A stretch of 64,000 bases of DNA from Microbotryum violaceum (taxonomy: Eukaryota): the NCBI GenBank assembly GCA_001244265.2, contig CDLV01000019.1, forward strand, positions 434,001 through 498,000, written 5' to 3'. Positions within the stretch are counted from its first letter, which is position 1. Every line of letters starts with the position of its first letter. Positions 7,691 through 56,045 of the stretch are shown here, piece by piece. A program made the position numbers and the translations under genes. The notes beneath the pieces are model-generated. The model worked only from the letters and a program-made list of their open reading frames with translations, did no database searches and was not told the origin of the DNA.

Positions 7691-9498
<1,808 letters not shown>

Positions 9499-9951
9499 GC
9501 TTCGAACGCGAAAGCTCGCTCTTTTTTCTGAGCACCCACCTCACACATCATCACCTTTCGCAACCCCGGCTCTTCGTAGTTTCGTGCACTTTGGGGGAGG
9601 ATGGCAAAAGTAAGCCCACCAGATCCAAATCCAAGGGCAACGATGCTGGTTGGGGGCCGGTCTGGACAAGGTGAAGGGGGTTGGTTCGTTTGGTGCCTGG
9701 AGGCGGATGCGGATGTCGAAGAGGTGGCGTGTGAAGCAGCCGTCCGGGGCCCGGAGCTGGAAGACCTTCCTTTCCTGTTGATCTCTTCTCACCAAATCAG
9801 ACCTTCTTGAAACCCCTTTTCACTGCTCATTCTGCATAGTCCATGCCCCAAGCAGCCACGTCAACCGAGAGATTGAAATCCTTCCCTTCCCTTCCCAAAC
9901 CCTGAACCCTCAACAGTGAAAGCAATCCCACCACCCCCTGACGCGGAACCA

Positions 9952-12250: not shown

Positions 12251-12455
12251 CGCGGTCCCGGCGTCGACGCTCGCTTTCGAGGTGACCGGGACCGAGGAGA
12301 CAGAGCAGCATTGACCAAAATCCGGACCGGCACCTGGCCGAACCTGGCCCGTGCGCGCCGCAGGTTCATTCTCAATTTTTGGATGAAGTTAACAACAACT
12401 TACTGCTAAGTTTGCTTCGGACAGTCGGATACAAGCACTATACAATATAATTTCA

Positions 12456-13603
12456 CTATCGCACTGCCAGGATGGCTGCAAACGTGGCGATCACGATAGC
12501 CGCTGTGATTTCAAAAAGTTGGATCGCTCAGCATCTCGCACGTGATCCTATGAAGTGCCACTTTGGACGCAGGCCTCTGTACTGACCAACACAAAACGAT
12601 GTGAGAATGACCGTTCTCCGAGAAGGTGGGAACATAGATTTGGGTTCCTTCATCAACGCCGATTGCACGGAAAAGTACCGGTTTGCGCCTGCAAAAATAT
12701 CCATTCAAGATGTTAGTTGGGCGGGGGGGCGCAGCCGGTGTCGCTACATTGCGCCTCATAGCGACTCACCCAATAGTAGGAACAGCAGGGCGAGGCCGAT
12801 AAACGTCCCACCCTGTATTTGAAGCGCTGTCAGTAAGCAGAAGCGATGAACCGCCAAGTATGCAAACTCACGATCGGCTTGCCCAGATGGCGATACTTGA
12901 GCGGATTGCCATTGGTCTGACCTTGCAGAAGCAGAATCTGCTGGGCTTGTTCAAGCACGAGTTGGCGGATAATTTGGAGTTCCTCAGATGCTGCGATGTA
13001 GCTTTCATTGCTACTGGCATTTTGCACGACCGCTCGTTCGAGCAGCGAGCGCAAATGTTGAGTCGAATTGGGCACGATCGAAGTCGAGCCGGTCGTGTCG
13101 GTGCTTGTCCCAGTCGGGACAGATGTCGACGCCAACCTGAACAGCTGCGTGATGGCGATCCCGATCGACGCCATACTCAAACTCGTCCTCAACCAAGCCA
13201 AGAACGTCCTCTCGTTCGCCAGATGATCTCTTGCAACCGAGCCTTTGTTCTCCAACATGTGCGTCAATCGCCAGTGGGAGCTCTTCGATGGGTGCTCGCC
13301 TCCGCTTCGGCCGGCGCCATCGTCCCCTTCCCCTTGGGCCCGCCGCCTGCGAGTCAACTTGGACATGAATGATCGAGCACCACCCGGCGTTGCTGTCGCT
13401 GACTGGGAGGGGTGGGTAGGAGGGCCGTCGCCATTGAGTTCTACAGCGTGGTCGGTCTTGCTATTAGTGACTTGCATCGTGTTGGACATGTTGGCGTCAC
13501 GTGCGAAGGAACCGTAGGATGGGTGTTGGTCAGAACCGGTCGATCGCTTAACCAGCCCCTCGCGCAATTCATCTTTCAGCGCGCACGGCTCGGAGGTGCT
13601 CAT
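12456..13603 (-). CDS. DUF202 (YidH-like) membrane protein
   Basis: LENKGSVARDHLANERTFLAWLRTSLS signature. Downstream exons give GKPI|GGTFIGLALLFLLL|GANRYFSVQSAL...FPPSR...|AAIVIATFAAILAVR*. Confidence 0.85.
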
Positions 13604-14782
13604 ACCCGAAGAAAAATGTGGTCGAGAGATCGGAGAGATTTCGTTAAAGCTGAGCAGGTGGATAGCTGATAATGAGAGGAGACAGACACAGGTTCCCGGG
13701 CTCTCTTACTTCAGATTCTATTAGTATCACCCGACCACTACAATGATGCTGGCGGCGGCATGACGTGCTCAAAAAAGCAGCGTGTATGCACTTATTACGT
13801 TTTCGCGCCCCGCGGCGTCCGCACCTAATAATCCGGGGAAAGATCGAAATCGCGTGCAGCAGCTTGCTCGGTATATATTGAACTTCCCAACATGATCGTC
13901 ACCGTTCTTACAAGCGGAGTGAGGGAGGGCTGAACAATGAGACCAGCCAGAGTACAATCTCTTTCCCTCATAACCCTTTCCGAGTTTTGGCAGAGTCATC
14001 AACAGTCACTGTTCGAGGAGGTGCAGGCGATGAGACAACAATTGCAACAACACACGAACTTTTACCTTGCGCGTTTGGGCACTGACTTTTGCAGATTGTA
14101 TCGTCAAGTTGGGAGACCCTGAAGGCCTAGAAGGCACACACGCCAAAAAGAGGCATTTGCAATGGAAGCTTCCAGCGCCAGCCCTTAGTACATAGGCAAC
14201 GCGACCGCAGTTGACCGGGTTGAACCGCGCGCCCCGCCGCTGCCAAAGTCGACTGCAGTCGCGACTTCGTGCCCGCGGTTGTTCGAGGCTAACGGTCGTG
14301 ACATCGAGACGATGATCCGAACCAAAGTGGGCGGCGCGCCGCCGCCAGCGAGCCGGTGCAAATGCAAACGGTGTACATAATCGGAAGCGTGGATGGGGAA
14401 AAGGTTGAAACACACAGCTCACGGAACAAACAAGTGGGGTCACGAAAGAGGGTTGCAAGGAGTCGAGCGGTCAAACCCCTTAACGAGACGATCGGGAGAC
14501 GGAGGCCGTGGGCCTGGCCGACGCGCAAACGGGCCCCGGGGGGAAGGTCGCCCCCTTGCGGAGGGGTTTGTTTCTTGGCTCGGGGTAGCTAACCCGAAAC
14601 CGAATCCCAACTGAGGGCCGCCACCCGTGTTCGGGGGCGCTGGCGGTGAGCTTGAGGCCCGTTGGCGACCCGCTTAGGCAATGAAGTTCGCGAAGTTGGC
14701 AGAGGCGTAGGGGAAGTTGGTGGAAAGGTGGGGGACGCACCTGGGGGGACGTCTGCGGCCTTCGAATCCACACGATTTAGTT

Positions 14783-15249
14783 TGTCACGTCACCGCGAAA
14801 TCCGCTTCCAATCGTTGATCCGATCCGATGCCGTTCAGCTTGACTTGAAGCGGATCGAGACGATTTGGCGCGTTCAGCAGGCTTGGGCAAGACACGTGAC
14901 CTAGCACATCTCTCTTACACTCTCTCTACTTTAGGAGAGAGATCTACTACAACCAGAGTAAAATCCATACCCGAAGGCGGTACCGTGCGCAACAAAGGCT
15001 GTGCCTACGGGAGAGCCATTCCTTTGTTGAGAAGTGCATGGCTGAGGCAGTGTAGTGTATTCGGATGAGGGTAGCCCGGTGTAGGGACTACAAGAGGGTC
15101 CGAAGAGGAGGCGGTGCCAATGCCGATGCAAAGTTTTATCCCGAGGTCGCGTTGAAGGGGAATCGCCCCTTTGATCCCGGCCGCGGCGCCTTGTTCGGAG
15201 GGAGCGCAAAATCTTGGCGGCGCTGTTGAACAATTTGGTGACCATGACA
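14783..15249 (-). mobile_element. Probable LTR of a decayed LTR retrotransposon (3' LTR with upstream PPT)
   Basis: On the minus strand, purine tract AAAGCAAAAGAGAGGAGGGAG is followed directly by TGTCATGGTCA at 15249. A candidate matching terminus ...GTGACA lies at 14783. Confidence 0.45.
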
Positions 15250-38136: not shown

Positions 38137-39912
38137 GGTTGGAAGGGGATGAGGTGGTCGTCTTCGTCGTCGTCGGGGGGTGGATATGAAATATATCGTG
38201 AAATCTAACCCATATGGGAGATGTTCGACGCAGATAACCCGATTAACAGTTGCAGTACGCCTAGCATCGTTGCTTTTCCTCAAGCGAGGCGGCGTGAGCA
38301 TCTCTGCTCAATCATGAGTAGAAGGTGCTCTAGCTTTTTAGTTGAGCTACGAGTTCAATGAGTCCGGTGAATCGTGACGATATCCTGACCGATTGTCGGC
38401 CCAAGTGTGAACAAAGGAAAAAAAGCGTGACACAGTTCAAGGCGCTCTTCCGCGACATGAGTGTGTTGGCGACGGGATGTCAATGAACTTGCAACACCCA
38501 GATCGGAACTTCGCGCGCCAAGCTAACAGGTCGCAATTCCGCTCGAAGCTCAGATCTGCAAGAACCATTTGAAGCACCAGTCAGAATGAATGAGCAAAAA
38601 AAGGAGGTCCTTCCGCGAGCAGCCTCCAGCCCAGGTTCTCGAGCACCGTCCGGCAAAAAAAAAGGAGAGCGAACTCGAATTTGGGAGACGAATTCGCGGG
38701 CGCTAGTATTGCAAGTAATACGCCGAACAGTCTCCGACTGGACGAAGTTTGTGCCGATCTCTATTGAATCTGAGTAGTGAATATATTAGTTCCTTTGGTC
38801 TGGGCTTAGGTGCGAATTTCCCCGCGACACTGCACAGCCTCGCGAAGAAACTGGCGGGGCCGCGCAAGCAAGGGAAGGCAAAACCGGGAAGGCGGCAAAG
38901 CAAAAAAATGAGTGAGCGACAGGCGATGTTGCGAGTGAAGATGGCTGGTTTCTAGCAAGAAGGAACAATTGCCTTCGACTCAACTCGCTTGGGGCGCACC
39001 TTGGTCGCATTTGGCAATCGGCTGCAACCGGAGGCAACCGGAGGCAACCGGCGGCAGGATGAGAAACGTTCTCTAAAGTTCGGCGTCTCCTGTGGGTCTC
39101 CCTCTTGCCACGTAGCCCGCTGGATCACCTCCAGCTGTCCAGGTGCCAACATCGCAACCGCAGGGTACCTCGACAACACCACAACGTAAGTAGAAGCTGT
39201 ACATGAATCACGCCGAAGTTGATGCCCATGCCCAAGTCACCGAAGTTGACTTCGCTGGTCGTCGATTTTCGTCCCCGTCGCGTCAGCAGCCTCTCCTGAC
39301 CGAACGACGCGAGCGTCGAGCAAGCGCCGATCGTCCCTTACTCCCCAAGGTAGCGCAAAGCGTGACAAAATGTAGAATATTAGCATCATTGGTGAGCTGT
39401 TTCCAGCACTACTTCCCCTTGCTCCGTCGCGACGTCTGCCGCACTGCCAGGCGACACTTGGCGGCCGACCACGCTCCTAAATGGGGATTTATCTCCTCTT
39501 AGTTCAGAGAGCTAATGAAGCGTCTTGTCGTCCACGGCCGATCAACGCCCCGGCTGAAGTCCACAAAAAGACACCGAAGCCCTTGACAAATGAACATGAC
39601 GAAACTACCGAACAAAACAGCAACCTCAACGGGGATCTCACCGAGGATCGGCAGTTTCGTCTACGGGACGACGATGCAGTGAGGACTGCAACGGTTCTGG
39701 CGATGACTCTGAAGAGTCCGGCGGCGATGGTGATGTCGACCCCTTTGCCGAACAAAAATAATTGACCAACCGTCATTGAAGGTAAGCGGATATGCGCAGT
39801 GATTCTGGTCGGATTTTGCACGTGCTAAATGCTAGCCTTCATGATCTCCAGCACTTCTTTCCTACGTACGCCAAAGCCGTCGTTGCGCTCCCAAAGCCGG
39901 GGCTATGCTATG

Positions 39913-40571
39913 CAGATTCCCCAAGGCGGCGCAGGATGCAGTCGAGAAGCTCGTCCGGGAGGAGCGGGTGTTCGTTTGTGAGCTCGAAGGAACTCCGAAG
40001 ATCCACGGTCGAATGGCCAAAGATGCGCTCACTCAAGGACTCTCGCCTGACGAATTTAGTCCTTCTCGCATCAGAAATCGATGGAGCTCGCCTCATCCGA
40101 TCGTCTTGGTCGGACGATTCCGTCAACTGTCGAACGTTGTTCCTCGTCAAACTCGGAAGGAGCACCACAACTCGCTCTATGCGTCCGCTATCAAGATTCT
40201 CTAGGATGTCGCCGAGCCAGACGAGCGCCTTGTCTGGCAAGCGCCTTGTATCAGCGTCGTACAAGGCGCTCGTCTGGCTCGGCGACATCCTCGAGAATCT
40301 TGATAGCGGGCGCATACAGCTAGTTGTGGTCTTCTTTCTCGAGTTTGTCGAGGAACAACGTTCGACATTCGACGGTGTCGTGCGACCAAGACAATCGGGT
40401 GAGGCGAGCTCAATCCATGGCTGATGGGAAGAAGGCCTAAATTTGAGTGAGCGCAACTTTGGTCGTTCGGTCTTAGACCTTCGAGGTTCTTTCGAGTTTA
40501 GAGTCGAGCAACCGCAGCGTTCCTCCCGGACGAGCTTCTCGACGGCACCCTGCGCCGCCTTGTGGAATCTG
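39913..40571. repeat. Long imperfect inverted repeat (hairpin A): arms 39913-40233 and 40261-40571, 27-nt loop
   Basis: AGGATGTCGCCGAGCCAGACGAGCGCCTTGT (40203-40233) is the exact reverse complement of 40261-40291. Similarity extends to CAGATTCC/GGAATCTG. The ORF track shows MRPLSRFSRMSPSQTSAL on both strands. Confidence 0.95.
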
Positions 40572-40849
40572 TCAGAACCCAATCATATCTGATTCTCTTC
40601 TAGTCCTATTCACTTCTCATGCCTCTACTTCGCTCCTACTTTTCACTCCTTCTTTAACTTATTACCCCCTACGCCGGATCCCAGCGCCTGATTGAGACTC
40701 GGTTGACAAGCTGGCTTGGGTTGAAGTCGCGCGCCTCGCGGGCGCTCGTCTCTCTTACTTCTTCATCTAACTTCCATCCTCGATCTTGCACTCGTACTCA
40801 ACCCCTCGAGTCGAGATCCAGTCCTCTATACTACTAATAGGTTATGAGC
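40570..40849 (+). mobile_element. Copia-type 5' LTR (~270 bp) with PBS; internal region lost
   Basis: Starts TGTCAGAA at 40570, pyrimidine-rich, ends ...ACTAATA, followed by GGTTATGAGC (40840-40849), the typical copia half-tRNA-Met primer site. Confidence 0.7.
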
Positions 40850-40883
40850 GTCTTTATCGCCTTTTTTTTAATCAATCTGGCAG

Positions 40884-43800
40884 AGAGAGATAGGCGCGCG
40901 CGCAGAATAAGGAATTAACCAAGACGAATAGCAATGAGTTAGGCTCTCAGAACCTACTTCTAGAACTCCCACCGATCAAAAAGACTAACGAGACCATTCC
41001 AAAGTAGCGCACGAAGTTGGGTCAAAGCGTTAAAACCCCAAAGGCTTCGTCATAATATCCGCGGCATTGACGTGGCTAGCTGAGGGCAGTACTCAAGTTC
41101 GACCTCGCCAGAAGCAACCCGTTCTCAAACAAACAAGTGAGCGGTGTCGAAGTGCTTGGTTCGCATGTGATCGACCGGATCCTTGGCGATCTGGATGCAC
41201 GCGGCGTTGTCCTCTGGAATGATATATAATGATAGTAGGGTGTGCTTGCGGAATGCCGACATCACCAGCCAAACGACGGAGCCAGATTGCTTCACGAGTG
41301 GCCGAGGACGCAGGGAAGATTTCGGCTTCGGTAGTGGATGTCGCGATCATGAATTGTTGCTTTGACTGCCAGGAGATGATGCCGCCAGCGAGAATCGATG
41401 CATAGGCTCCCAACGATCTGCGAGATTCCGGATCGTCCGCAAACGAGGCATCGGAGTAGCCATCAATTGAGCTGTAGAACTGTTGCGATAAAGAATTTCC
41501 AAATCGATGGTGCTGTTGAGGTAGCGAAATATACACTTGACCGCAGACCAATCGTCGACAGCCGGACAGGAGTTCTTTTAAGCAACAGCACAAACAGCAA
41601 TCGCGATATCGGGTCGACATCGAGTAAACGCGTATTGGAGGGAACCGACAGCCAATTGGTAGAATGAAACATCGGCAAACGGAGTAGCGCGAGGGGCGAT
41701 CGTCCATGGCCGTGACTTCACGGCGCTTGGATGGAGAAGCGAAATCGAACTTCTCGAGCATAGTGCAGACATATTTGCTTTGGTGGACGAGGGTGTGATC
41801 CTTGGTGCGATGGATTTCGAAGCCCAAAAAGTAGGAGACGGGTCCGAGACGTTTGAACTTGAAGGCCTTGTGAAGCGATGCGAGCTCGGAGTCCAAGAAG
41901 GACCGACTGTTGGACGCAATGAGACCATCTTCAACATAGAGAATGATGACTGCAAACGAATTGCCCGAATGTCTGAGGTAGAGGCAAGCATCGGCAGTTG
42001 CCCTCATGTAGCCTCGAGACACTATGAAATCGTTGGCAGCTCGATACCATTCATGAGGCGCCTGCTTGGTGCCATACATCGAGCCAACGAGATTGAGGCA
42101 TTTGCCAGGTGATTGAGAATCATTTCATCCTTTTGGGTATCGAACATAGACATTCTCGGCCATCTTGCCGTTGAGAAAGGCGCAGTCGAAATCGAACGGT
42201 TCAAGATACGGACCTGAGCAGCAGCTAGAGCAATCAAGAACAGAATCGTCGAAGGACGAGCGACAGGAGCGTAGTTGTTATGATAGTCCATGCCTGGGCG
42301 TTGAGCAAATCCTTGAGAAACGAGACGAGCTGTGAAACGAATGATGTTGCCCCTTGCGTCGCCCTTGATACAGATCGTGCCGAGTACCCAAATGCCTTCG
42401 TGCCACTTACTTCCTGACAGACTCCATGATGATCGAATTGTAGAAGTTCTGAGACCATTGCCGCACTCCAATGGTTGCGATAGGGTGACTTCATGGCTTC
42501 CTCGAATATCTTGGGTATCTCGTTGTCTTCTTCGGCGAACATGGCGGCACTGCACAGTAGGCATCGTAGGAGAGCTTGTCGTGGAACATGGGTGGAGTAT
42601 CGAAGTCGACCGTGATAGCTGCAATGATAGGAAGGATAACTTCCGGAGGTTGAGGTCGGTGACAAGAACCAGCAGGAAGGACGTTGGAAGGGTTGACATT
42701 CTCGAGCTGGCCAGGATTTGGACCAGTGCGAACAATGGGATAATCTTCACGAGGAGCGAGAGCGACTTTCGCCTCGCTGTCGAGTAGTTCTGCTGCGTCA
42801 TGATAGTCATCAGGTCCATCGTCAGGTCCAACGTTGTCGTCATTGTCGTCATCCTTTCGAGGAACGACTGCAAGAGCCGCCCCTGTGGGTCCGGCAAAGT
42901 TGGATCCATAACAGGCGAAGCCGGTGTAAACGGCAACACATCTGGCGGATGAGGTTGAGAATGATGAACGGGAACGGAAGCTTCCCGTAGTTGTATTCAA
43001 CGGAGTACCCGAGTAAAACTCCCTGACTGGAGGGAGGTGCAAGCTTGGTTCGACGCTCCTCGGGTACGTGGACAAACGCCGTAGATCCGAATGGCTGCAA
43101 ATGAGCAAGACTAAGCTTCTTGCCGAGAAGGACTTCGATTGCCGTTTTGCCTTGGATACGAGGATGTGGTCGACGATTCAGGACAAATGTCGCGACGGCC
43201 AGACCAGAAGCGCATGGGAGGACCGGAGTCGAGAAGCATCGATCGAACGAGACCCATGAGAGGTCCTTTGAGTCGCTCTACTTGAACATTTTGCTCCGGA
43301 GTATAGGGGGACGTGAATTCCACGATGATGCCCTGCTTTATTAGAAGATCCCGGAACAATGAGTGATCGAATTCACGACCATTGTCCGATCTGTAACCCA
43401 AGGTCGCGGAATCTCGCGAACGGGCCATCCGCCGCAACGATTTGGCATGCAAATACATCGCCAATTCGATCTCTGAGGAACAGACGTCCCACTTAATTCA
43501 TCTTACCTCGGCGTACGAGATGTGGGACACCTTCCGAGGCCTCCACTCGAGTCTCGATCTCACGGTCGCCCGAGTCGCACTATGGACCTCCTGAACACTC
43601 TGGCGCAACCCTACGCTGCGGATATTCCTCTCAAGGAATTCGTCAACAAGGTCAAGATCGCCATGACCGATTTTCAGGAGCTCGTTGACGAATTCTCCGG
43701 AAGGGATACCCCCAGTGTAGGTTTGTGCCAGTGTTCAAGAGGTCCATAGTACGACTAGGGCGACCGCGAGGACGGAAGGTGTCCCACATCTCGTACGCCA

Positions 43801-44047
43801 AGGTAGGATGTATTAAATGAGACATCTGTTCCTCAGAGATCGAATTGGCGATGCATTTACCTGCCAAACCGTGGCGGCGGATGGCCCGTTCGCGATGTTC
43901 CGCAACCTTCAAGTCCGCAACTTGGAAGCTGGTGAGCCCGGGCGGAGTGCGCAGAACCACTCAGCCCGTTAGTAAGAGATAGGTGCGCGCGCAGAATAAG
44001 GAATCAACCAAGACGAATCTAATAGCAATGAGGTAGGCTCTCAGACA
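40884..44047 (-). mobile_element. Degenerate Ty1/copia retrotransposon
   Basis: Copia domain order: gag (IANSISEEQ...AYEMWDTF), integrase (RSDNGREF, SPYTPEQN..ERL, FGSTAFVHVP), RT (ARLV.QGFAQRPG.DY, MYGTKQAP, LYVED), RNase H (GYSDASFA..RRS, STTEAE, ADIMTKPL). Many frameshifts. A ~70-bp direct repeat at 40886-40951 and 43975-44045 marks LTR remnants; PPT-like GGTGGGAG precedes the 3' copy. Confidence 0.93.
43400..43909. repeat. Inverted duplication of copia gag (hairpin B): arms 43400-43650 and 43681-43909
   Basis: CATCGCCAATTCGATCTCTGAGGAACAGA, GGCGTACGAGATGTGGGACACCTTCCG and GAATTCGTCAAC each recur as reverse complements. About 30-nt loop. Confidence 0.95.
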
Positions 44048-44071
44048 CACACCACACACAGCTCACGAAAC

Positions 44072-45553
44072 ATGTCGTCCAAAGAAGGAGCCAAGCTCAA
44101 AGCCGAGTGAGTGAACGTCAACGCGTGATCACTCGGTTCGTCGCTGACCACTGCGCTCGCATCTCGTGTACCCAGAGCCGAGAAGGCGCTCAAGCCGTCG
44201 GTCAGTCCTATCGCGCCTCCTGCCGTCGTACATGGAGATCACTGACGTGTGCTCCGTTGCCAATCACATCAGTGGTTTGGTAGTCAGAAATCGAGAAACA
44301 CTGCCGCCGAGGAGCTGTACGAGCAAGCCGGTAATCGTTACAAGGTCGGTCGCACGAGGCTGCACCACGTCATCGAGCCTCCGTTCGGCCGGGGGGCAAG
44401 ACCGTAGTGACCAGCATGCCCGCCCTGCGCCCCGCTAGACCAACCACCTTGCTGACCCAATGATCTGATGTTATGCACAGGGTGAAGGCTACTTGAACGA
44501 TGCTGGGTTCTGCTACGTCAAGGCCGGCGAGCTGGCACGCACCAACGACGAACGCGCCTCCGCGGCCAACCACTTTTGGAACGCATGCAAGGTCTACAAG
44601 AAGCAGGATCCTCATCGTAAGCAGACCAGTCTCATCTGGAGCCTATTCATTCGGTTGCATGGCCGCAACTCGGTTCGGATCCATCTGCCCGTTCCTATCG
44701 CCGACTAACCCCATACGATTCAACCCCCACTTTGGCCCAGTCGCCGTGGGCGCACTGCAGAACGCGATCGAGTTGTACAAGTCCGACAACAAGTTCCGAC
44801 AAGCTGCCGATCGGGAGAAGGAGATGGCTGCCATATGGCAGGCCGAAGGAGGCAATCTGAACGAGGCTTTGAATGCGTACGAGCGAGCGGCGAGGCTCTA
44901 CGAAGCCGAGGATGCGCAGGCGTGAGTTGAAAGTGATCCCTACCTATACACAGTCAATAACTGAAGAGAACACTCGATTCCCATTAGCACTGCGAACGCA
45001 TGCCTCAAGGAAGCCGCCGAGCTTGCCGCTTCGGTCGGCGAGTACCCTCGAGCGGTCACCCACTTTGAAGCTGTGGCCAAGCATTCCTTGACCTCGGCAC
45101 TGACGCGCTACAGCGTCAAAGAGTACTACCTCAAGGCTGCGCTTTGTTGGCTCGCGACAGGGGTGAGTACTTGCGTAGACTTGGTGTGCGTCTGATGATC
45201 CAGCTGACGGAGTGATTGATCGACTTGACAGGATGTCGTCTCGACCCAACGCAAGCTCGAGGAATACTGCTCACAGGATCCTAGCTTTGGCGCAACACGC
45301 GAAGCCAAATTTATCCACGACATCGCGGATGCCTTCGAGGGTGGGGATACAGAAGGGTTCACGGCTGCCGTGGCCGACTTTGATCGGTACATCGCTCAGC
45401 ACTCGTTCGTTCGCCCATGGAGTGGCACAAAGACTGATTTCACAACCCTTGGTCGTCTTTTCTGAGAGCAGCTTGACACGACTCGACAACTGGAAGACGA
45501 CGATCTTACTGGCCATCAAGCGACAAATCTCCGAGGAGCCGAGCCTGTCGTAG
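44072..45553 (+). CDS. SEC17: Alpha-SNAP (vesicular fusion protein Sec17)
   Basis: Spliced MSSKEGAKLKAE|AEKALKPS|WFGS...AAEELYEQAGNRYK|...AANHFWNACKVYKKQDP|...FRQAA...|SALTRYSVKEYYLKAALCWLA|...DPSFGATREAKFI...|LTRLDNWKTTILLAIK. Confidence 0.92.
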
Positions 45554-45797
45554 AAAGGCCTCGGCTTTCTCTCATGTGGCACAGCCCATCCCTCTCCGCT
45601 GGGTTACGGAGAGGGAAGAAGGAACCACCCTATTGTATGCTTTTCACATTTCGTTTGTAATAACTAATTTGATCCGTATCCTGCCATACGTGCGGCATTG
45701 CCTTCTTCCCCTTCTCCCACTCTTGACAATTCACGTCCGTCTGCTTCGCCATTGCGAGACAACCCTTTCTGCTCGTCCCCCCAAGGTAAGGAGCGGC

Positions 45798-46200
45798 CTA
45801 CCCTTCGGCTTCTGCCCTCAATTCGAGGTGGAGATTCTTCTGCTCGCAGACTGGACGCAACTTTGTCCACCGCGGGTAAGAGAACGGTCGATCGCTCTCC
45901 TCATCGGACCAAATGGGCGATTCTGCTGGGAGCCATTTTCTTACTTCTTGAACGGCGACAATGACGACAGTCAACGACTTGAGCGCAGGGAGCTCAGTGG
46001 TCTGGTTTCCAAGCCTGCAGAACCCAGTCACAACTTGTTGGTACAGTTGGCGTTGGAAGGGCTCTCGCCACGTTCGGCACGTCGCAGACGCATGGCACAA
46101 ATTGCCCTTTGTGCCTCTCGCCCTCCACCACTCCCCACCACGAACATCGGTGAATCACGCGATGATGCATAGTAGCTCGGGTGGTGTTCGCCGTTGCCAA
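45798..46200 (-). pseudogene. F-box protein pseudogene (paralog of the adjacent F-box gene)
   Basis: RRTPPELLCIIA*F (in-frame TGA)...NLCHASATCRTWREPFQRQL joined almost directly to C-terminal RWTKLRPVCEQKNLHLEL. Matches both ends of the 46674-47970 product, with the middle missing. Confidence 0.7.
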
Positions 46201-46673
46201 CACGACCCCAATGGCAGGAGTGTCATCGATTCCAGAACCTCCGCCGGTGATGGCTCGACGCTTCGGACGACTGACGCTCGAAGAGCTGCGATCGATCGCA
46301 ACTCGGCTGCTCTTGATCTTTACGCCCAAGATGATCTGACATCTGCCTTCGGATCGGACTCCGGGTATCGACCCGTGTTTGGACGCGTCGCAAAACCAGT
46401 GACTTGACTCATAGAAAGCTTTTCCATGTGAGTTTGAATAAACGGAGGTTGATAAAGTCATAAAGTCTGGTCAAGGGTTTTCTTTCAGTTCTGTATCCCC
46501 ACCCACCCAGTCGCAGAAAAGATGAAAGTCTCCCCGAGAGAAACCATATTTGGGAGTATCAGACCCATGGAATTTCAAACATCTCAAGCATCGGTGACAG
46601 ATTCACGTCTAAGCAATTATCAAAGGAAAGGTTTGACATGATCATCCAGAGAGGAGTCGTTGTGGCCTTTGTT

Positions 46674-47970
46674 CTATTCGTTGGACTTAGTCAAGGGGCC
46701 TACCACATTGAGATCAATGGTCACATTTTGCTTGTCACACCAGCTCTTCAGCTCATCCCAATTGGTTTCGTTCAACTGCGAGTCGATTTTGGTCTTCGAC
46801 CAAACGACGGCTTCCTTCTGGCCGACCCGAGCGTTGGACATGTGGAACCAAACTTGAATGTTGACGAGCCGAGGAAGTTCGCTCGTCTGAAGGCTCTTGA
46901 GTAGAGCGACTAAGCAGACCTCGAAGCCCAGCTTGGCGTAAACTGAAAAGTTGATGCACAGCGTGTGGAAAGGCGCATACGAAGGGATTGCCGCCACGAG
47001 GGGTCGAACGGAATTGAGCTCTTGGGCGTGATTGCGGCCGTGACACCCCGCGTAGGACAAAACACTCAAGCGGAAGACCCGGAGCGATATGCACGCTTGA
47101 AGACCCTCTACGAAAAGCTTGATGATTGTAGAGCTTGCATCGAGTCCATCGTCCTCGAGGATGAGAGAGAATTCCTTTAGTCGCACGCCTTTGCAGGTCA
47201 GGAGCTCGACCTCGAGCGCTTTGCGCGTCGGCGATTCATGGTCAAAGAGCACATCGTACCCGCATGTCAACTCGATCTTGACGAGTGCGGGCGTGCTCAC
47301 GCCCCGTGCAAATAGGGAGAGGGCACGTAAGCGCACTTTGCGGCATTTGAGAAAAGTGAGCTTCGGGAGCACCGGTCGCATGTGTCCCAACCGCTCGAGG
47401 CGGCAAGATTTGACGCCGCTCAACTCGAGCCGTTCAAGATCTGCGGGGAGGGGGGTTGGGGTCAGTGTCTCGGATCGCTATCATGTATTACACAAATGAA
47501 GCGGGTAAGTTTGTACTTTGAAGATCATACTTGATGGCGAAGAGATCCAGCACCAACTCTTCTTGCGACACGCAAAGCGCCTTGACCGACGATCGCGTCA
47601 GGCTCAGTAGGTCGAAGAGGAACTTGGCGGCGGCGGTCTTGTCCCGAACGAGCGAAACGAGGAGGCGGTGGATCGGGTACTGCCTCGCCAGACTGAGGTC
47701 ACGTGCCTCGTGCTCGATTCCACGCCCGATCGCAACATGCAGCTCCTGCATCAGCTGGCGCGAAAAGGGACCGCGCCATGCTCGACAGGTTGCAGCCGCG
47801 TTGCGAAGGTCTTGGAAAACCGACTTGGTTCGCCATTCGATATCGCCGTCATCCCTGTCGTCGTCGTCGTCGCTGCGACGCTGATCGACAAAGGCCGCAA
47901 TGTCACCGAGGAGCTCGGGCGGCAGGCGGCGAACTGCTTTACCACTCGCTTGTGCGTGTAAAGGCGCCAT
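46674..47970 (-). CDS. F-box protein with LRR-like C-terminal region (lineage-specific)
   Basis: RRLPPELLGDIAAF...LRNAAATCRAWR F-box. Phase-1 intron 47441-47516. Repeats such as LERLEL, LPKLTFL, LKEFSL, LRVFRL and LPRLVNI. Confidence 0.7.
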
Positions 47971-48403
47971 GTTTGTATTGAGGGGGCGAGGGTCGACAAC
48001 GAGGCGCCCGGTCAATCTGCTATCACGAGTGGGCAAACCCTGCTGGCGGAGCGCACCGAGCACGCGCGGGGGCGCGTCCGAGTCGCGACGAGAGCAAGAC
48101 GCTATGCCCTGCTACACCTGTCCTGCCTACGCCTCGGCGCGTGACGCGTGACGCGTACGTCACGTCACGTCAGCGTTTCACCCCTGAGCGCCTCAGCGCT
48201 CAGCGTGAAACTGCGTGACGCGTGAGGCAAGGCATCGCCTTGCACAGCTCCCTCCGCATTCTCGCTCCTTTTCCTCAACGCCGCCAGATTCCCCAGTGAA
48301 CATTTGCCCATTTTAGCAGTGAGTGGGTTCCTGAATCGACCTGAGCAATCTGAAACCAAGTCGACGATGGTGTTGAGCCTGATACTACTGTCATGTCGTT
48401 GCA

Positions 48404-49550
48404 GTGAATCGGACATCCATCGTCGCCGGGCCGTCGTCCTCCACTTCCACTTCCCCCGATCAACGCTCGCAAAGTGGCGAATACCGAGATCAACTAGACG
48501 AGCTCGAGTCCGACTCTGAAGCCGGTACGGACGTCAACGATGCGGAGAATGACTCGGACTCCTGGAGCATCGCCTCGTCACGTTCTTCATTGATCGTGTT
48601 CGAAGAAAGCATGGGTTGGTCGGATGGAGATTCGCTCACGGAGGAGGACAGGCACGCCACCAAAGTCGACCAGGAGTTTGCGAAACATGTCCAGGATCGA
48701 GAGCGCGAGTCTCAAACAATGAAAAATCACTTCATCAAACCTCGTCCCGAGGACGATTCGCGCCACGTTAGCTGGACCGGTCGCTTGGGATCGAGAAGGT
48801 CCGTTGAGGAGATCGAGGAAGCGATTAGGTTGGCAACGGTGAGTGCGGACAGCCCCCATTGCAACTCATTCAGGGTTAAGCAGTGGAACTGATTTGATCG
48901 AGCGAAACCGCACGTCCTGGCACGTAGGGGGGACAATCTCGGCTCGTCGTATGCCATAATGAAAATCGGCCCTGCGCAGAGTGTCGCTTCGAGCCGACCA
49001 GCGAGGGGCCTTCGCTCGATGAGACGCCCGACGTCGTCATTCTTCCTCTCGAGGTCGTCAACGACAAGGACTCGGACTATGTGGGGGCTTGGAGTCGTCT
49101 CAGGGAAGGCGAGAGGGATATCCGTGACTGGATTCAGGTCACAAGCGTCGGCATCGTACAACATAGCGACAGCTCGCGACATGCCCGTCGCGCCGTGCCC
49201 CGCCTCAAGCGCCAGCTCCTGCGGATGTTGAACACGCCGATTCGTGACTTTGCTCTCGGGTTCACCCTGTTGGGGTCGGCTCTGACCATTTACACCCTCA
49301 CGAATCAAGGTCTGTACTACTCCCCACCCATCGAGTGTACGCTCGAGAATGGCAACCTCTCGACGTTCCTCTTCCGTCTACTCGACATGAGCAATATCGA
49401 ACTCGGTGTCCGGCTGTCGTACAATGGGAGCTTCAGCCTGGAGGGACTCAAAGAAATCCCTTTAGGCTGATCCCTGAGGCGGAGAAACACTTCACGTCGA
49501 TCATCCGGGGGCCCCCTTTGGTTATCGCAACTCCACCTGTCCATGACCGA
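48404..49550 (+). pseudogene. FunK1 (Pkinase_fungal) family N-terminal part, truncated or frameshifted
   Basis: TPDVVI...W..V.SVG...QLLRMLNTPIRDFALGFTLLGSALTIY...G.YYS...FLFRLLDMSNIELG resembles the FunK1 N-terminal region. Stop or frameshift at ~49468; no in-frame catalytic core; no clear start ATG. Confidence 0.6.
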
Positions 49551-49665
49551 GTTTTAGTATTGAAGTCCGGTTTCATAGTTGATGATTGTATAGTGCAACA
49601 TGAGTACAAGCATTTGGAGTGCTTCTCCCCAAGTTCCCATTCCAAAATAACACGTTCACCCCGTT

Positions 49666-49940
49666 TCAGGCTCGGTGCAAGACACTGAGGGGGAGTGCAG
49701 CCTCAGCCGAGCTACGGGAGGGCCTCGCTCGGAAAATGCCGCGGTGGTCGAGCTCGAGCAGGTGTAGAAGAACTTTCGTGAGGAGGTTCTTGTTCGCGTC
49801 TATGCGACAGTCCCGGGTCTCAGTCGCGAACACACCGCAGGCGTTGACCAGGTACACACGAAGCATCTCGCCGCAGAGCGTGAATCTGATCGCATGGGAG
49901 CGGGTCGGCGTGGTCAATAACATGTGGAGTGGACGCAGGA
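49666..49940 (-). pseudogene. Second FunK1 N-terminal fragment in the opposite orientation
   Basis: MLLTTPTRSHAIRFTLCGEMLRVYLVNACGVFAT...LTKVLLHLLELD aligns by eye to MLNTPIRDFALGFTLLGSALTIYTLTNQGLYYS...LSTFLFRLLDM. Confidence 0.55.
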
Positions 49941-50097
49941 GTTGCGGCTTCGTCTCCTTGACTTCGCCGCATTCAGCTTCTTCAGTTCACCGACAGCTCC
50001 AACTTGGGGGAAAAGGCGCCTCGAGCGCCAATCCTGCGTCGACTCCACATGTTGTTGACCACACCGATCCGCTCCCCGCCCCACGCGCGGAGACCCA

Positions 50098-50950
50098 GGG
50101 GCTCAGCCGGATCGTCGGCGTTCACCGCGGCGCTTTCCGGATTCTCCCCGACTTCCTTTCCGACGACGAGGTGTTCGAAGGCATCGAACCCCGTGCACTT
50201 GAAGTCGTCTTCTCCGAAGAGTGTTACACCACACTAGACTCGGTCCAGGATACCGAAGCCATGGCTCGCGTCGTGTTGGGCGTCATTCACGGGGAGCATC
50301 CCACGACGAGTGCGGCTCTTGGGGGTTGTCCCTGATCGAACCCCGCTCATGATAAGGTCACTGGAGCCTACACCGACTCGGCTTTCTCCACCGTGACGTC
50401 TCGACCAACAACGTCATGGTCGATCGCCCCGGGCACGGGGTGCTGATCGACTATCATTTGGCGGTGGCGTAAGATCGACCTGTCCATGACCTCATTTTCA
50501 AGACACGCTCCATCGCTAGAGACGTATACCGGAGGGTTGGAGCGTGTCTTGAAGATAAGGTCATAATCTGGCAAATCGTGCGCCTCCGCCAGCTGAGTCG
50601 ATCAGCACCCGTACCGAGTGCGATCGACCATGACGTCGTTACGTCACGGTGGAGGAAGCCGAGTTGATGCAGGCTCCAGTAGCCCTGACATGAGCAAGGG
50701 ACACTCACTCCCCAAGGGCCGCAATCGTCGTCTTGGGATGCTTACCGTGAATGACGTCCAACACGATGCGAGCCATGGCTTCGGTATTTTGGACCGAGTC
50801 TAGTGTGGAGTAACACTGTTCGAAGAAGCCGACTTCTAGCGCACGGACTTCGATGCCGTCGAAGACATCGTCATGGGGAAGGAAATCGGGGAGGATCCGA
50901 ACAACGCCGCGGTGAACGCCGCGGCCGAGCCGACGATTCGGCAGAGCCCC
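50098..50950. repeat. Inverted duplication of a FunK1 kinase catalytic-core pseudogene (hairpin C): arms 50098-50512 and 50538-50950, 25-nt loop
   Basis: The plus arm encodes RALEVVFSEECYTTL...VIHG|HWSLHRLGFLHRDVSTNNVMVDRPGHGVLIDYHLAVA*. The minus arm encodes the homologous RALEVGFFEQCYSTL...YWSLHQLGFLHRDV. TTCAAGACACGCTCCA/TGGAGCGTGTCTTGAA closes the loop. Confidence 0.95.
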
Positions 50951-51045
50951 CCGGATCTGGGCGAGCACCACTGGAAACTGAGAGCGAGGATGGGGCGTGA
51001 GTCAACTGAATCGCTGGTTTCGACGCGTTCGATGTGTTGCAGAAA

Positions 51046-51298
51046 TGTTCTCAAGTGGAAACTGATGATGACCACGACTCAGTCCAATGAACAGGGACGA
51101 GAACAGAGTAAGGTAAGATTCCAAAGAGCTCACCTGATGATGACCACGACTCAGTCCAATGAACAGGGACGGGAACAGAGTGGCCAGAGACTAAGAGACA
51201 GACTCGCGGAAGGCTAGAAAGTGAAGCGTAAAGATAATAAGGAAAGAGATTAGAGACTAGTAAAGTAAGGAGATTGAGTGACTAAGGAGTGAATGACA
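51046..51298 (-). mobile_element. Probable solo or decayed LTR containing a 48-bp tandem duplication
   Basis: The minus strand starts TGTCATTCACTCC at 51298 and is pyrimidine-rich like the 40570 LTR; a possible ...GAACA end lies at 51046. CTGATGATGACCACGACTCAGTCCAATGAACAGGGACGRGAACAGAGT occurs at 51062 and 51134. Confidence 0.45.
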
Positions 51299-52565
51299 CG
51301 CCGCTAGGCTCAATGCCAAGTACCATAATAGGAACGATAACCAGATGAAGGACGGAACAACCCATATGACCATATACGAATGACACGATGGACACGGTAG
51401 GAGGGAGGCAGACGCGGTCGACAAGCTAGGAGTCAGGCATGGACGGCGGACAGAACTTCTACCTTGCGCATGGAGATTGGGGGAGCTTCAATCACGGTGG
51501 TTTTCTTGTCGGTGGGATCGACGATGAAGACGATTCGGGTAGACAGGATTTTGGAGGTGGGATTTGGGGGGGAGGAACACCCGGAAGGGCATGACAACGC
51601 CCAAGACGACTCATCGGAAATCTGGGTGGGGTCGGAAATCCGGGTGGGGTCGGAAATGGGGCGTTCAACCTCTTTCAAGCCAATTTAGACTGTGACATCA
51701 TCAAGGAGGACACGGACGATACGAGCGAGCCAAATTCTTTCCATCAGTCTGCTGCTGCGACTTCTCTCGTTCGGTTTGCGAAAACGATTTCTCGAGCTTC
51801 TGTACGGGTTTCAGGTATCGGAATTGTACGTTTATAGGAAGGGGGCACAGAAGGAGATCAGAGGGAAGGGGAAGAAGGGGGCGAAGGTCGAAGATTCTAG
51901 TGGGCCGGGGAAAAAAAATCCTTGTCGAGGGGGAGACAGGGATCAGGATCTCAGGAACCGGAGAAGCGGAAGAAACGGAGGACACGGAGAAGGCGGAGGG
52001 AGCGGAAGAACTGGCGGACGCAGTCACAACACACGAACCTGAAATGGCGACGGAAACAGACTCCTTAAACTTGAGGCATCGATCGGCTTCGGTTTGTAGT
52101 ACTTTAATTTGCCGGAGGCCTTCGACTCCAGGAAAAGTCAACACGGGCGCGCGTTTCTGGGAATTGCTGCGGGGTGCTCAAGCGGCAAAAGATGAGCAGT
52201 CAGATGAGTCGGAGCGGTCGGTCTTCAAGGTGTCCTGGACGGCCATGACGGTGGGAAGGAGAAAAACGAGGATTGGGAGCTCGAGGTCGAGAAAGGAGAG
52301 GAAATGATGACAATGACTGCGTACAAGGAGGTTGGGGTCAGGTTGACCGACGAGAACATGGCGGTGATTGATTACGGCGGGGAGCGAGTGCTGATGTAAG
52401 GTATACGCCTCTGATGTGCATAAAACACAATTTGTCGTTCTTGACCGCTACGCTAAAAGCAAGTCGTAACTAGAACTCGATAGTTCTAGCTACTCTACTT
52501 ATGGGGCTGTTCCTCTAAGGCATCCCCTTACACGGGGTGGGCCTCCTGTCGTTAGTACCTTATCT

Positions 52566-53494: not shown

Positions 53495-56045
53495 TTATTC
53501 CAGCTCATCCGCACGCATCAATTCCTCGTCCTCCCTCTTGCTGTCTCCGAAAACCTCCTCCTCATGCACCGGCACCAACTCCACCGACTTCTTACCCCCT
53601 TCTTCCTTGAGCCTAAATCTCGCCGTGTCCCCATCCCTAATGGTCCCTTTCAAAATTCCCGACGCCAACTGCTGTCTCACCACTTTATTCAACAACCGAT
53701 TCACCTCCCTGGCTCCCCAACGAGGTTGATACGCTTCTTTCGCCAACCAGTCCCTCGCCTCTGGGTCAATAGATAAGTGGATCTTGCGTTCGCTGGTATT
53801 GAGCATCTGTTGAATTTCGGAAAGGCGCATGTCGATGATGGATGCGACATGAGTGGGCGAGAGGGAATTGAAAACGATTTGTTCGTCGAGTCGATTGAGG
53901 AGTTCAGGTGGGTAGAGCGAACGAACGCGTTCGAGAACGAGGTCCCGAGCTACAGGGGTCACTTCACCATTGGGTGAAATGGATTCGGGTCGCATGAGGA
54001 TATCGGAGCCAATGTTGGAGGTGAGGATAATGGTCGTGTTCTTAAAGTCGAGTTTACGACCATGAGAGTCCGTCAGAGCGCCTTCGTCGAGGATTTGAAG
54101 GAGTATGTTGGCGACGGAGGGATGCGCCTTTTCGAATTCGTCGAAGAGGATCACCGAGTGGGGATGACGACGAACGACCGACAATTCGCCTCCGTCTTCG
54201 TAACCTACGAAACCGGGGGGTGCACCGATCAGTCTTGCGGCGGTATGTTTGTCGTGATATTCGGACATGTTGAGGGTGACTAGTCGATCGGTGCCCGTCA
54301 ATTCGGCGGCAAGCGCTTTCGAAAGCTCCGTCTTGCCTACGCCCGTGGGACCGAGGAAGAGGAAAGAAGCGACGGGCCGATTGGGGTTGTGTAGACCGGC
54401 ACGGGAGAGTCGAACGGCTTCGGCGACGGCGTGGAGAGCGGGCTCTTGGCCCACGACACGTTGGCGAAGGATCGACTCGAGGTCGACCAATCGAGCACGG
54501 TCACCACGCATCAAGGCCGAGACGGGGACGCCCGTTGCTTTGGCAACGACGCGAGCAACGTCCGAAGCAGTGACCCGCGCTTGACCCGCTTGAGCGGCTT
54601 CTTGACCATCCTTGGGGACCTGTGCTTCGAGCTTGGGGATTGTCGAATACCTCAACTCGGACGCCTTGTCGAATTGCCCGGTCCGAACGGCTTCCTCCAA
54701 TTCGAAGCGTTTCCTCTCCAATTCTTCTTTGGCCTGTCGGATCTTCTCTCCTCGCTCCCTCTCGTCCCTCCACTCCTTCTCCATCTTGGACGCCTTGTTC
54801 TTGAGCCGGGCGATCTCGTCGACCAAGACCTCACGACGTGATCGACTGGCCTCGTCTTGGTCCTTGCCCAAGCTCGACAACTCGATCTGCAACGTCGTCA
54901 AGTGTTGTTCGAGCGCCTCGAGTTGCTCCGGCTTGGATTCCCTCGCGAGGCGCAACGCCGCCGCCGCTTCGTCGATCAGATCAATGGCCTTGTCCGGTAA
55001 TTGTCGATCGGTGATGTAGCGTTGCGAGTAGGTGACGGCGGCGATTATAGCGGCATCAGAAACGATCACGCCATGATGAACTTCCATGCGCGACTTGCCA
55101 CCTCGCAACATGGTGATGGCTTGTTCGGCCGAAGGTTCTTCGATCGTCACTTTTTGGAAGCGGCGCAGCAAAGCGGCATCCTTTTCGAGTTCGCGAAATT
55201 CGTTCCAGGTCGTTGCACCGGCGAGTTGAAGACCCCTTGCGAGAGCGGGCTTGAGCATGTTACTTCCCGTGAGACTGCCTTCGGCTTTTCCGAGTCCGAG
55301 TAGTTGGTGAATCTCGTCTGTGGGGCATGAGGTAGTTAGCGTCGGGCTCATGGAAGAAAAAGTTGAGCGTGTTCCACTCACCGATGAAGACGATGATCTG
55401 CCCCTTGGCATCCTCGATATCGGCAATAAGATCCTTGAGCTTGCCTTCGAACGATCCCCTGACGGCGGTACCACTCATGATGGACGCCAAGTCGATCGAG
55501 ATCAATTTCTTCCCCTTGAGTGACTCGGGCACCTCGCCCGCGACCAATCGTTGCGCAAGAGATTCAATGATGGCCGTCTTGCCTACACCCGCTGCACCAA
55601 CCAGGACAGGGTTGTTTTTGGTGCGCCGGGAAAGGATCTGTATCGTGCGTCGCACTTCGTCGTCTCTTGCAATGACGGGGTCAAGTTTCCCCTGGCGCGC
55701 GAGCTCGGTCAAATCAACGCCGTGTTCTTTCAGAGCGGCACCCGGTTCGCGCTTGGGTTGACTGTTGAAGATGTTGCCGATTGGGAAACCACCACCGCCG
55801 CCGCCCGCGTTGTTGTGGTTGTTGTTATTACCGCCGGGTGGCGGTGGGTGTTGGGCTGGGGCTCGAGGAGGGGACGAATGTGAGAAGGAGCGAGCTTGAA
55901 GTGAGGACCTCCTCAGCGTCGGCTGGGTGGTGGTGACTTGGATCGTCGGTCGCCACAGCAGCTGGCCATGACGGTGTGCAGGACGGAGTAAACGAGGAGC
56001 AGTAGATGCAGAGGTGAGCGAGCGCAAAGAGCTTCTCTGGAGCAT
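53495..56045 (-). CDS. HSP78: Mitochondrial ClpB-family disaggregase Hsp78
   Basis: R/S-rich presequence MLQRSSLRSL and no Clp N-domain; GKLDPVI, KNNPVLVGAAGVGKT, FI|DEIH (one intron ~55318-55381), LPDKAIDL, GPTGVGKT and GAPPGFVGY. Confidence 0.95.

Follow-up and report, generated by a model that had tools for sequence, protein, structure and literature searches.

In Drosophila, hairpin RNA (hpRNA) genes such as Nmy and Tmy suppress drivers of the Dox family, and in maize, Mu killer is a genetically proven silencer, which consists of a transposon segment in inverted duplicate and is expressed from a promoter in its flank. Young plant MIRNA loci are said, after work by Allen et al. in 2004, to arise by inverted duplication of their target genes. 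Inverted repeats are likewise left by fold-back and template-switch events, with parallels in the palindromes that form at short inverted repeats in Tetrahymena ribosomal DNA and in yeast, in the fold-back inversions of cancer genomes, and in fork stalling and template switching (FoSTeS) or microhomology-mediated break-induced replication (MMBIR). Here, we describe four hairpin-forming inverted repeats, H1 to H4, which lie within about 11 kb of a 64,000-nucleotide (nt) stretch of DNA from the anther-smut fungus Microbotryum violaceum (assembly GCA_001244265.2, contig CDLV01000019.1, positions 434,001 to 498,000 of the forward strand), referred to as the window. With a little better than even confidence, we regard them as old fold-back or template-switch scars in a gene-poor, unconstrained island, which carry an incidental potential to form double-stranded RNA (dsRNA).

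H3, which derives from a gene of the FunK1 kinase family, has the anatomy of a Drosophila hpRNA gene, i.e. an inverted duplicate of a fragment from a protein-coding gene family that has a short loop between arms of a few hundred nt and turns over rapidly. It differs in being known from DNA alone, in its fungal host, in the frameshifts and approximately 14% mismatches of its arms, and in the lack of a target of at least 90% likeness among the contigs of sequencing run X1 (see below). H2, an inverted copia gag segment whose family is present at high sequencing depth, is comparable to Mu killer as a potential trans silencer, but it is accompanied by a stump of a long terminal repeat (LTR), it lies 25 nt or more ahead of a SNAP gene, and related organisms have lost it by deletion. 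The likeness to plant MIRNA and proto-microRNA loci consists in the proposed birth by inverted duplication of a target gene and the subsequent decay of the arms. In contrast to these loci, the arms are far longer than those of a microRNA foldback, and no target relationship was found for H1 or H3. With fold-back and template-switch events, the locus shares the short spacer, the native context of one arm on either side, the deletion where the copy returns (H2 and H3), serial turns (FunK1) and probably the scarcity of microhomology. Nonetheless, known cases usually have longer arms or terminal duplications, and four small ones in 11 kb, three of them with loops of 24 to 27 nt, are unusual.

Local alignment of the window against its own reverse complement returned exactly the four inverted repeats that an earlier reading of the letters (the sequence-only reading) had proposed at 39913-40571, 43400-43909, 50098-50950 and 49896-50076. 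The common architecture attributed to the three large hairpins was also recovered, with arms of 232 to 415 nt, loops of 24 to 27 nt and arm identities of 86 to 88% (Table 1). As claimed, the conserved genes are free of such structures, as all 10 inverted-repeat pairs of at least 50 nt and within 3 kb that the window contains belong to H1 to H4. A blastn comparison of the window with itself gave six non-self pairs, namely the four hairpins, a 71-column LTR piece and a 48-nt direct repeat. The predicted RNA folding of the three large hairpins has z-scores of -27, -32 and -42 against shuffled sequences, and perfect Watson-Crick runs of at least 19 bp are present in each of them (31, 23 and 19 bp in H1; 29, 27 and 22 bp in H2; 20 and 19 bp in H3). 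They are thus long, short-loop inverted repeats that are predicted to fold as one strand, which is the structure expected of a hairpin-RNA locus. A search of positions 38500-52500 against Rfam gave no match.

Table 1. Hairpins and associated features of the locus. Positions are those of the window; aa, amino acids; ORF, open reading frame. Arms were aligned one against the other (matches / mismatches / gap events / identity).
Feature	Positions	Strand	Size (nt)	Arm alignment	Description
H1	39913-40571			262 / 42 / 4 / 86.2%	
H1 left arm	39913-40233		321		ORF-derived, no family assigned; in the M. saponariae homologue, joined to the left flank without a break
H1 loop	40234-40260		27		holds a second copy of a 10-nt word from the left-arm end (read from the sequence)
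H1 right arm	40261-40571		311		ends about 19 nt before the copia LTR
copia 3' LTR	40590-40952	-	about 363		boundaries placed by the stops of single-copy contigs, the shared LTR piece 40886-40951 and a purine-rich tract at 40953
copia pol remnant	41093-43399	-			C-terminal part of the integrase core, SH3-like, RVT_2; frameshifted
H2	43400-43909			203 / 28 / 5 / 87.9%	
H2 left arm	43400-43653	+ (gag sense)	254		outer end is the breakpoint against integrase
H2 loop	43654-43677	+ (gag sense)	24		
H2 right arm	43678-43909	- (gag sense)	232		
Direct repeats bounding the H2 deletion	43432-43438 and 43915-43921	+	7 each		first copy 32 nt into the left arm, second copy 6 nt beyond the right arm
copia 5' LTR remnant	43975-44045	-			63/71 columns identical to 40886-40951; rest of LTR and leader missing
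FunK1 N-terminal fragment	49741-49923	-			aa 1-61, 80% identity; overlaps the H4 left arm
H4	49896-50076			45 of 51 / 6 / 0	two FunK1 N-terminal pieces joined head to head
H4 arms	49896-49946 and 50026-50076		51 each		
H4 loop			79		
H3	50098-50950			339 / 55 / 10 / 86.0%	
H3 left arm	50098-50512	+	415		aa 171-256 at 50078-50332, 90.7% identity; then to an HRD-type motif with frameshifts
H3 loop	50513-50537		25		
H3 right arm	50538-50950	-	413		aa 184-254 at 50920-50708, 80.3% identity
High-depth repeated element beside H3	51069-51356				interrupts the single-copy contigs (last base 51068, next base 51357); depth 3586-7117 compared to about 214

The palindromes are present in independently sequenced DNA. 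The window was found in 19 of 23 listed public sequencing runs, which come from eight studies and of which none is on record as RNA. Four of them (X1, X10, X13 and X16) were compared as contigs with a likeness threshold of 90%; the filter drops some records, and depth is not equivalent to copy number. In X1, which may be the source sample, a contig of 7245 nt over 43824-51068 spans H3 and H4 without a single difference and at the depth of the flanks (213.7). In X13, which stems from another study and carries another organism label, a contig over 39000-40599 spans the whole of H1 with 13 differences, and a second one over 43915-50949, which has 25 differences and 11 gaps, includes H4 and H3. 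H1, H3, H4 and the junctions of H2 are at single-copy depth, the hairpins being not repeated, and a transposon of the Foldback type or a miniature inverted-repeat transposable element (MITE) was rejected on this ground. The contigs of X1 and X10 both end on the base that immediately precedes the H1 loop (40232), in a part of the stem with approximately 28-31 bp of perfect pairing; this probably reflects a break of the k-mer graph at the centre of a near-perfect palindrome and not biology. The low cover of run X16 is even across genes and spacers and resembles that of DNA sequenced at low depth, and no conclusion was drawn from this cover or from the uncovered bins.

The fold-back anatomy can be traced in H2. 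Its assignment to copia gag is supported by the pol domains on the minus strand and by arms that are colinear with multicopy copia contigs, while the Pfam match to gag itself is weak (E 0.035, ORF of the right arm). Between 43497 and 41093, read on the minus strand, Pfam gives rve (E 8e-4, short of the cut-off), SH3_retrovirus (E 2e-13) and RVT_2 (E 8.5e-22), and this order of integrase and reverse transcriptase on one strand is that of a Ty1/copia element. Over 40.7-43.8 kb, the family reaches a depth of 8,242-14,980 compared to about 214 in the flanks, i.e. a summed depth of about 40-70 times that of the flanks, which does not equal a copy number. The left arm and the loop of H2 are colinear with the family up to 43684, beyond which the family contigs diverge. 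On the outer side of the right arm, at 43910-43945, the upstream gag of the family continues (27 of 30 bases, compared by eye with the loose end of an X13 contig at 43399). In the sense of the element, the order is LTR stump, upstream gag, gag from position 1 to about 249, the complement from about 285 back to 1, and integrase. Because the outer end of the left arm (43400) directly abuts the integrase core, the C-terminus of gag, the protease and the N-terminus of the integrase are missing. This anatomy fits a switch onto the complementary strand about 25-36 nt ahead and a subsequent return in which sequence was deleted. In X1, a contig at single-copy depth (242.6) runs across the junction 43399/43400, which indicates that H2 occurs at this locus only and did not spread as a defective element. 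Between the two LTR pieces, 3 of 66 aligned bases differ and there is one 5-nt gap, the 95% interval of 3/66 reaching about 12%, and no matching 5-nt flanks that would represent a target-site duplication were seen around the copia sequence when read by eye. The copia sequence that holds H2 is thus a rearranged remnant with neither two full LTRs nor a target-site duplication.

H2 is absent from two other labelled organisms. A contig of X13 (depth 21.6, shorter side 252 letters) joins 43431 to 43915, skipping 483 nt with seven shared letters, and the same joint is present in a contig of X16 (depth 4.2, shorter side 73 letters); no such joint was found in the contigs of X1 or X10. The deletion allele retains 32 nt of inverted gag beside the upstream gag, which only the hairpin can have left behind and which indicates that the hairpin is ancestral and was lost in the organisms of X13 and X16. 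As far as the contigs tell, H2 is dispensable. Slipped mispairing at the base of a palindrome is the textbook route to deletions between short direct repeats in bacterial and yeast genetics. The X13/X16 allele, in which the 483 nt between two 7-nt direct repeats near the stem base are dropped, resembles such palindrome-stimulated deletions. It differs in being a natural variant only, for which the direction of the change is deduced from the 32-nt inverted gag remnant. At a distance of only 25 nt from the LTR stump lies the apparent ATG (44072, plus strand) of a SNAP/Sec17-type gene (Pfam SNAP E 1.2e-12 on 44497-44925). H2 and the stump fill its immediate upstream region, and strains with the 483-nt deletion thus have a different sequence upstream of this gene.

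The origin of H3 from a FunK1 kinase was also confirmed, since both arms match a PF17667-bearing protein of 256 aa from Microbotryum saponariae. Pfam itself reports FunK1 only for the N-terminal piece, with an E-value of 9.7e-4 that stays short of the cut-off, and nothing for the arms. No match to aa 62-170 was obtained anywhere in the window at E<=1. In our own reading of the frames, an N-terminal LHMLLTTP motif is located on the plus strand at 50026-50076, about 20 nt before the sequence from aa 171 onward, and this close spacing indicates an internal deletion of about aa 10-170. Along the plus strand, a single FunK1 gene is laid out as a zig-zag. It starts with the N-terminus in antisense, turns at H4 into the N-terminus in sense, continues after the internal deletion with the middle part in sense as far as the HRD-type motif, and turns again at H3 to finish with the middle part in antisense. 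In H2, the loop and one arm are colinear with the parent sequence and the outer side of the other arm is native; a deletion is located at the return junction of both H2 and H3. The kinase frame is not intact, as frameshifts and stops occur in both arms of H3 and aa 62-170 are absent. An ORF of 243 aa over the H3 left arm gave no match to longer proteins, and its frame is mostly non-coding.

The surroundings of H3 show further peculiarities. A contig of X13 joins 50949 to 50994, exactly at the outer end of the right arm, with 44 nt skipped or replaced, so that the arm boundary at 50949 coincides with a structural difference between labelled organisms. A more distant stretch at 49225-49419 (plus strand, within the ORF 48928-49470) resembles the N-terminus of FunK1, with 34% identity to the M. 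saponariae protein (E 4e-6), and because of this second N-terminal-like stretch, FunK1-like sequences are locally clustered. At the edge of the high-depth element, a 48-nt direct repeat (51062-51109 and 51134-51181) is 47/48 identical, with a spacing of 72 nt. It was considered that this element and the copia LTR belong to one family, but they gave no meaningful alignment (best score 26).

H1 was attributed by the sequence-only reading to an ORF of no recognizable family, and this has stayed so after Pfam and protein searches: neither the H1 ORFs nor the arms of H3 gave a Pfam family even at E up to 10. A HopA1 match on the arm ORFs is at chance level (E 0.23), and an F-box, considered for H1 on account of a motif of the LLPDELL type at the outer arm ends when read outward, is now no more than a lead, as Pfam returned 0 families and two stops had to be read as X. 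Among 1.84 billion representative proteins, the H1 ORF has a single match, M. saponariae Chr10-2g03004, and since this sole match is its own orthologue, the ORF does not seem to belong to a multicopy family.

Two of the structures are older than the separation from M. saponariae. For the Hsp78 ORF of the window (53495-55474), an M. saponariae protein matches with 98% identity, followed by other Microbotryomycetes with at most 68%, which places the window in a Microbotryum species close to M. saponariae yet distinct from it. The Hsp78 orthologue g03019 shares a contig of 743,737 nt with Chr10-2g03004. In tblastn, the latter aligns with H1 from the left flank through the left arm and the loop into the start of the right arm, and on the other strand it matches the right arm as well. 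Because g03004 thus holds a peptide together with the peptide of its reverse complement, the H1 hairpin is present in M. saponariae, too. The FunK1 sequences likewise have a syntenic pair there, g03014 (152 aa) and g03015 (256 aa), which is duplicated on Chr3-3. The first 147 residues of the pair members are identical, on Chr10-2 as well as on Chr3-3, pointing to either a recent segmental duplication or copies that are being homogenised. Among 71 aligned FunK1 residues, 12 are shared by the left arm and M. saponariae only and five by the right arm and M. saponariae only, while none is common to both arms against M. saponariae. A duplication younger than the species split should leave differences shared by the arms, and as none was seen, H3 is at least as old as the split. 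On this comparison of proteins and synteny, H1 and the FunK1 structure predate the separation from M. saponariae.

The divergence of the arms is uniform and ordinary in kind. The p-distances of H1 to H4 (0.138+-0.020, 0.121+-0.021, 0.140+-0.017 and 0.118+-0.045) are statistically indistinguishable, and the ratios of transitions to transversions are 21:21 in H1, 19:9 in H2 and 32:23 in H3. A passage of PMC4469406 describes hypermutation similar to repeat-induced point mutation (RIP) at TCG/CpG sites in retrotransposons of M. lychnidis-dioicae. A RIP-like process was rejected as the cause of the arm differences, because few transitions are located at CpG (3/21, 8/19 and 8/32), transversions number 21, 9 and 23, and CpG is not depleted (observed/expected 1.1-1.3). 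The crude ratio of nonsynonymous to synonymous differences (pN/pS) between the H3 arms is 0.62, which would indicate relaxed constraint. Transitions that remain compatible with G:U pairing favour the plus transcript in H1 (15 to 6) and its minus counterpart in H2 (14 to 5), and H3 shows no preference (14 to 18); a common strand signal is not seen.

From these observations, we infer a template-switch origin, in which the growing DNA strand would have left its template and re-primed about 25 nt back on the complementary strand, either its own or that of the sister. Reverse copying of 50-415 nt would then have been followed by rejoining elsewhere with loss of the intervening DNA. The products may have persisted and drifted to an arm divergence of about 13% because of their location in the only low-constraint stretch of the window, which consists of the decayed copia element, the FunK1 pseudogene and the ORF of H1. 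Their clustering would reflect where scars are tolerated and not a dedicated locus, and a selected function need not be invoked. Any transcript would fold into long imperfect dsRNA, which in an RNAi-competent genus (RNAi, RNA interference) would probably be diced as a by-product. Several facts sit uneasily with this explanation. At the turn of H2, only four of six bases could pair in our own reading. Two or more hairpins date from before the split from M. saponariae and are still present, and four hairpins in about 11 kb with similar arm identities, three of them with loops of 24-27 nt, show a regularity that is not required of neutral scars. In addition, a complete LTR is immediately followed by H1 when the minus strand is read, the H2 family has the high summed depth given above, and, as a passage of PMC4469406 has it, RNAi genes are expressed in the genus.

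As a variant, all four hairpins might stem from one complex, replication-based repair event with serial template switches. The indistinguishable arm distances of 0.12-0.14, the large loops of 24, 25 and 27 nt, the presence of at least two turns of one gene in the FunK1 region alone and the location of all four within 11 kb speak for such an event. However, the intact-looking SNAP gene and an F-box-like ORF are placed between H2 and H3, and the small difference between the LTR pieces around H2, even with its wide interval, hints at a younger insertion. The identity of at least 147 residues between the head-to-head FunK1 copies of M. saponariae points to separate later histories, too. A single event is thus conceivable but rather unlikely.

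The sequence-only reading had interpreted the block as a possible LTR-driven silencing locus against copia elements and the FunK1 family. Spelled out, one or more of the hairpins would be transcribed, with a start in the neighbouring LTR for H1 and read-through for the rest, and then diced, so that small interfering RNAs (siRNAs) silence copia (H2) and FunK1 or other paralogues (H3 and H1) in trans, the whole being kept by selection. An RNAi machinery is reported in the genus: as stated in a section of PMC4469406, M. lychnidis-dioicae has one Dicer, two Argonautes and one RNA-dependent RNA polymerase (RdRP), all of them expressed, and the absence of RNAi genes is therefore not an objection as far as the genus is concerned. 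The predicted folding of the three large hairpins into long duplexes with perfect runs, the match of H2 to a high-depth copia family, the syntenic conservation of H1 and the FunK1 structure in M. saponariae, and the end of the 3' LTR about 19 nt from H1 are also in line with silencing. Of the LTR claimed upstream of each large hairpin, however, only one stands: near 40952, a real copia 3' LTR precedes H1, whereas the LTR at 44047 is only a 71-column remnant, and the third (51298) falls into the high-depth element at about 51069-51356 and is at most a putative LTR.

The notion of an LTR-driven cluster holds only as far as the adjacency of H1 to an LTR is concerned. As H1 lies so close beyond the end of a complete minus-oriented LTR, read-out transcription into it is conceivable. 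An LTR promoter at H2 is doubtful, since this LTR is cut to about 70 nt, and the block is not one transcription unit, because ordinary genes, the SNAP gene and the F-box-like ORF, separate H2 from H3. The F-box-like ORF is the upstream one of two adjoining long minus-strand ORFs (47488-48111 and 46674-47477), with a weak Pfam match (E 0.0023, short of the cut-off), and is probably a lineage-specific F-box-type gene. Candidate trans targets are evident in part: many near-identical copia sequences are available to H2, but a FunK1-family target is not evident in X1 at 90% likeness or more, because H1 and H3 are at single-contig depth there (213.7-253.5) without another copy of at least 90%. The H1 ORF, with its own orthologue as the single match, offers no multicopy family either. 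H2 has been lost in two other labelled organisms, and the arm differences give no sign of preserved pairing as far as testable, the G:U-compatible bias being opposite in H1 and H2. On this evidence, we consider the silencing reading unlikely, and so is a selected hairpin-RNA function in general, although the conservation of H1 and H3, the uniform loops, the equal arm divergence and the RNAi genes keep it under consideration.

A stronger version is less likely still. H1 to H3 would be bona fide hairpin-RNA genes that arose through inverted duplication and were maintained in Microbotryum species over millions of years, with H2 directed against active copia, H3 and H1 regulating FunK1 and other lineage-specific paralogues, and loops of about 25 nt that result from a common mechanism of birth. 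If true, no endogenous hpRNA genes would have been described in Pucciniomycotina before them, and the hpRNA arms race of Drosophila would have a counterpart in fungi. In the literature on FunK1, on small RNA and Dicer, and on fungal inverted-duplication hairpin RNA, supplementary files with possible tables on transposable elements or small RNAs aside, no description of such hairpin loci in Microbotryum was found.

For H2 alone, the copia reverse transcriptase might have switched strands and switched back, with subsequent integration as a defective element. Reverse transcriptases readily switch templates, and the sequence of sense gag, inverted gag and resumption in integrase would require two switches on one template family. 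Yet no target-site duplication was recognized on reading the flanks, the truncated 5' LTR demands a later rearrangement at the DNA level anyway, and H1, H3 and H4 have the same architecture without being retroelement sequence, which makes this origin improbable. An assembly artefact, i.e. false palindromes from chimeric fold-back reads, to which the contig ends of X1 and X10 at the H1 loop could be taken to point, is effectively excluded by the contigs from independent studies and differently labelled organisms that span H1 and H3/H4, by arm differences that are mainly substitutions (42, 28 and 55 compared to 4, 5 and 10 gap events), and by the M. saponariae gene models that carry both H1 arms.

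If the hairpins are scars only, as we favour, a fungal genome would have preserved natural traces of fold-back template switching, and also of how a palindrome is lost through slipped mispairing. The hairpins would also be a caution that clusters of hairpins may mark DNA of low constraint rather than function. If their transcripts are diced, the locus would be a testable case of RNAi-competent basidiomycete pathogens making trans-silencing triggers against an abundant copia family and a fast-evolving kinase family, and natural alleles with and without H2 are already at hand for comparison.

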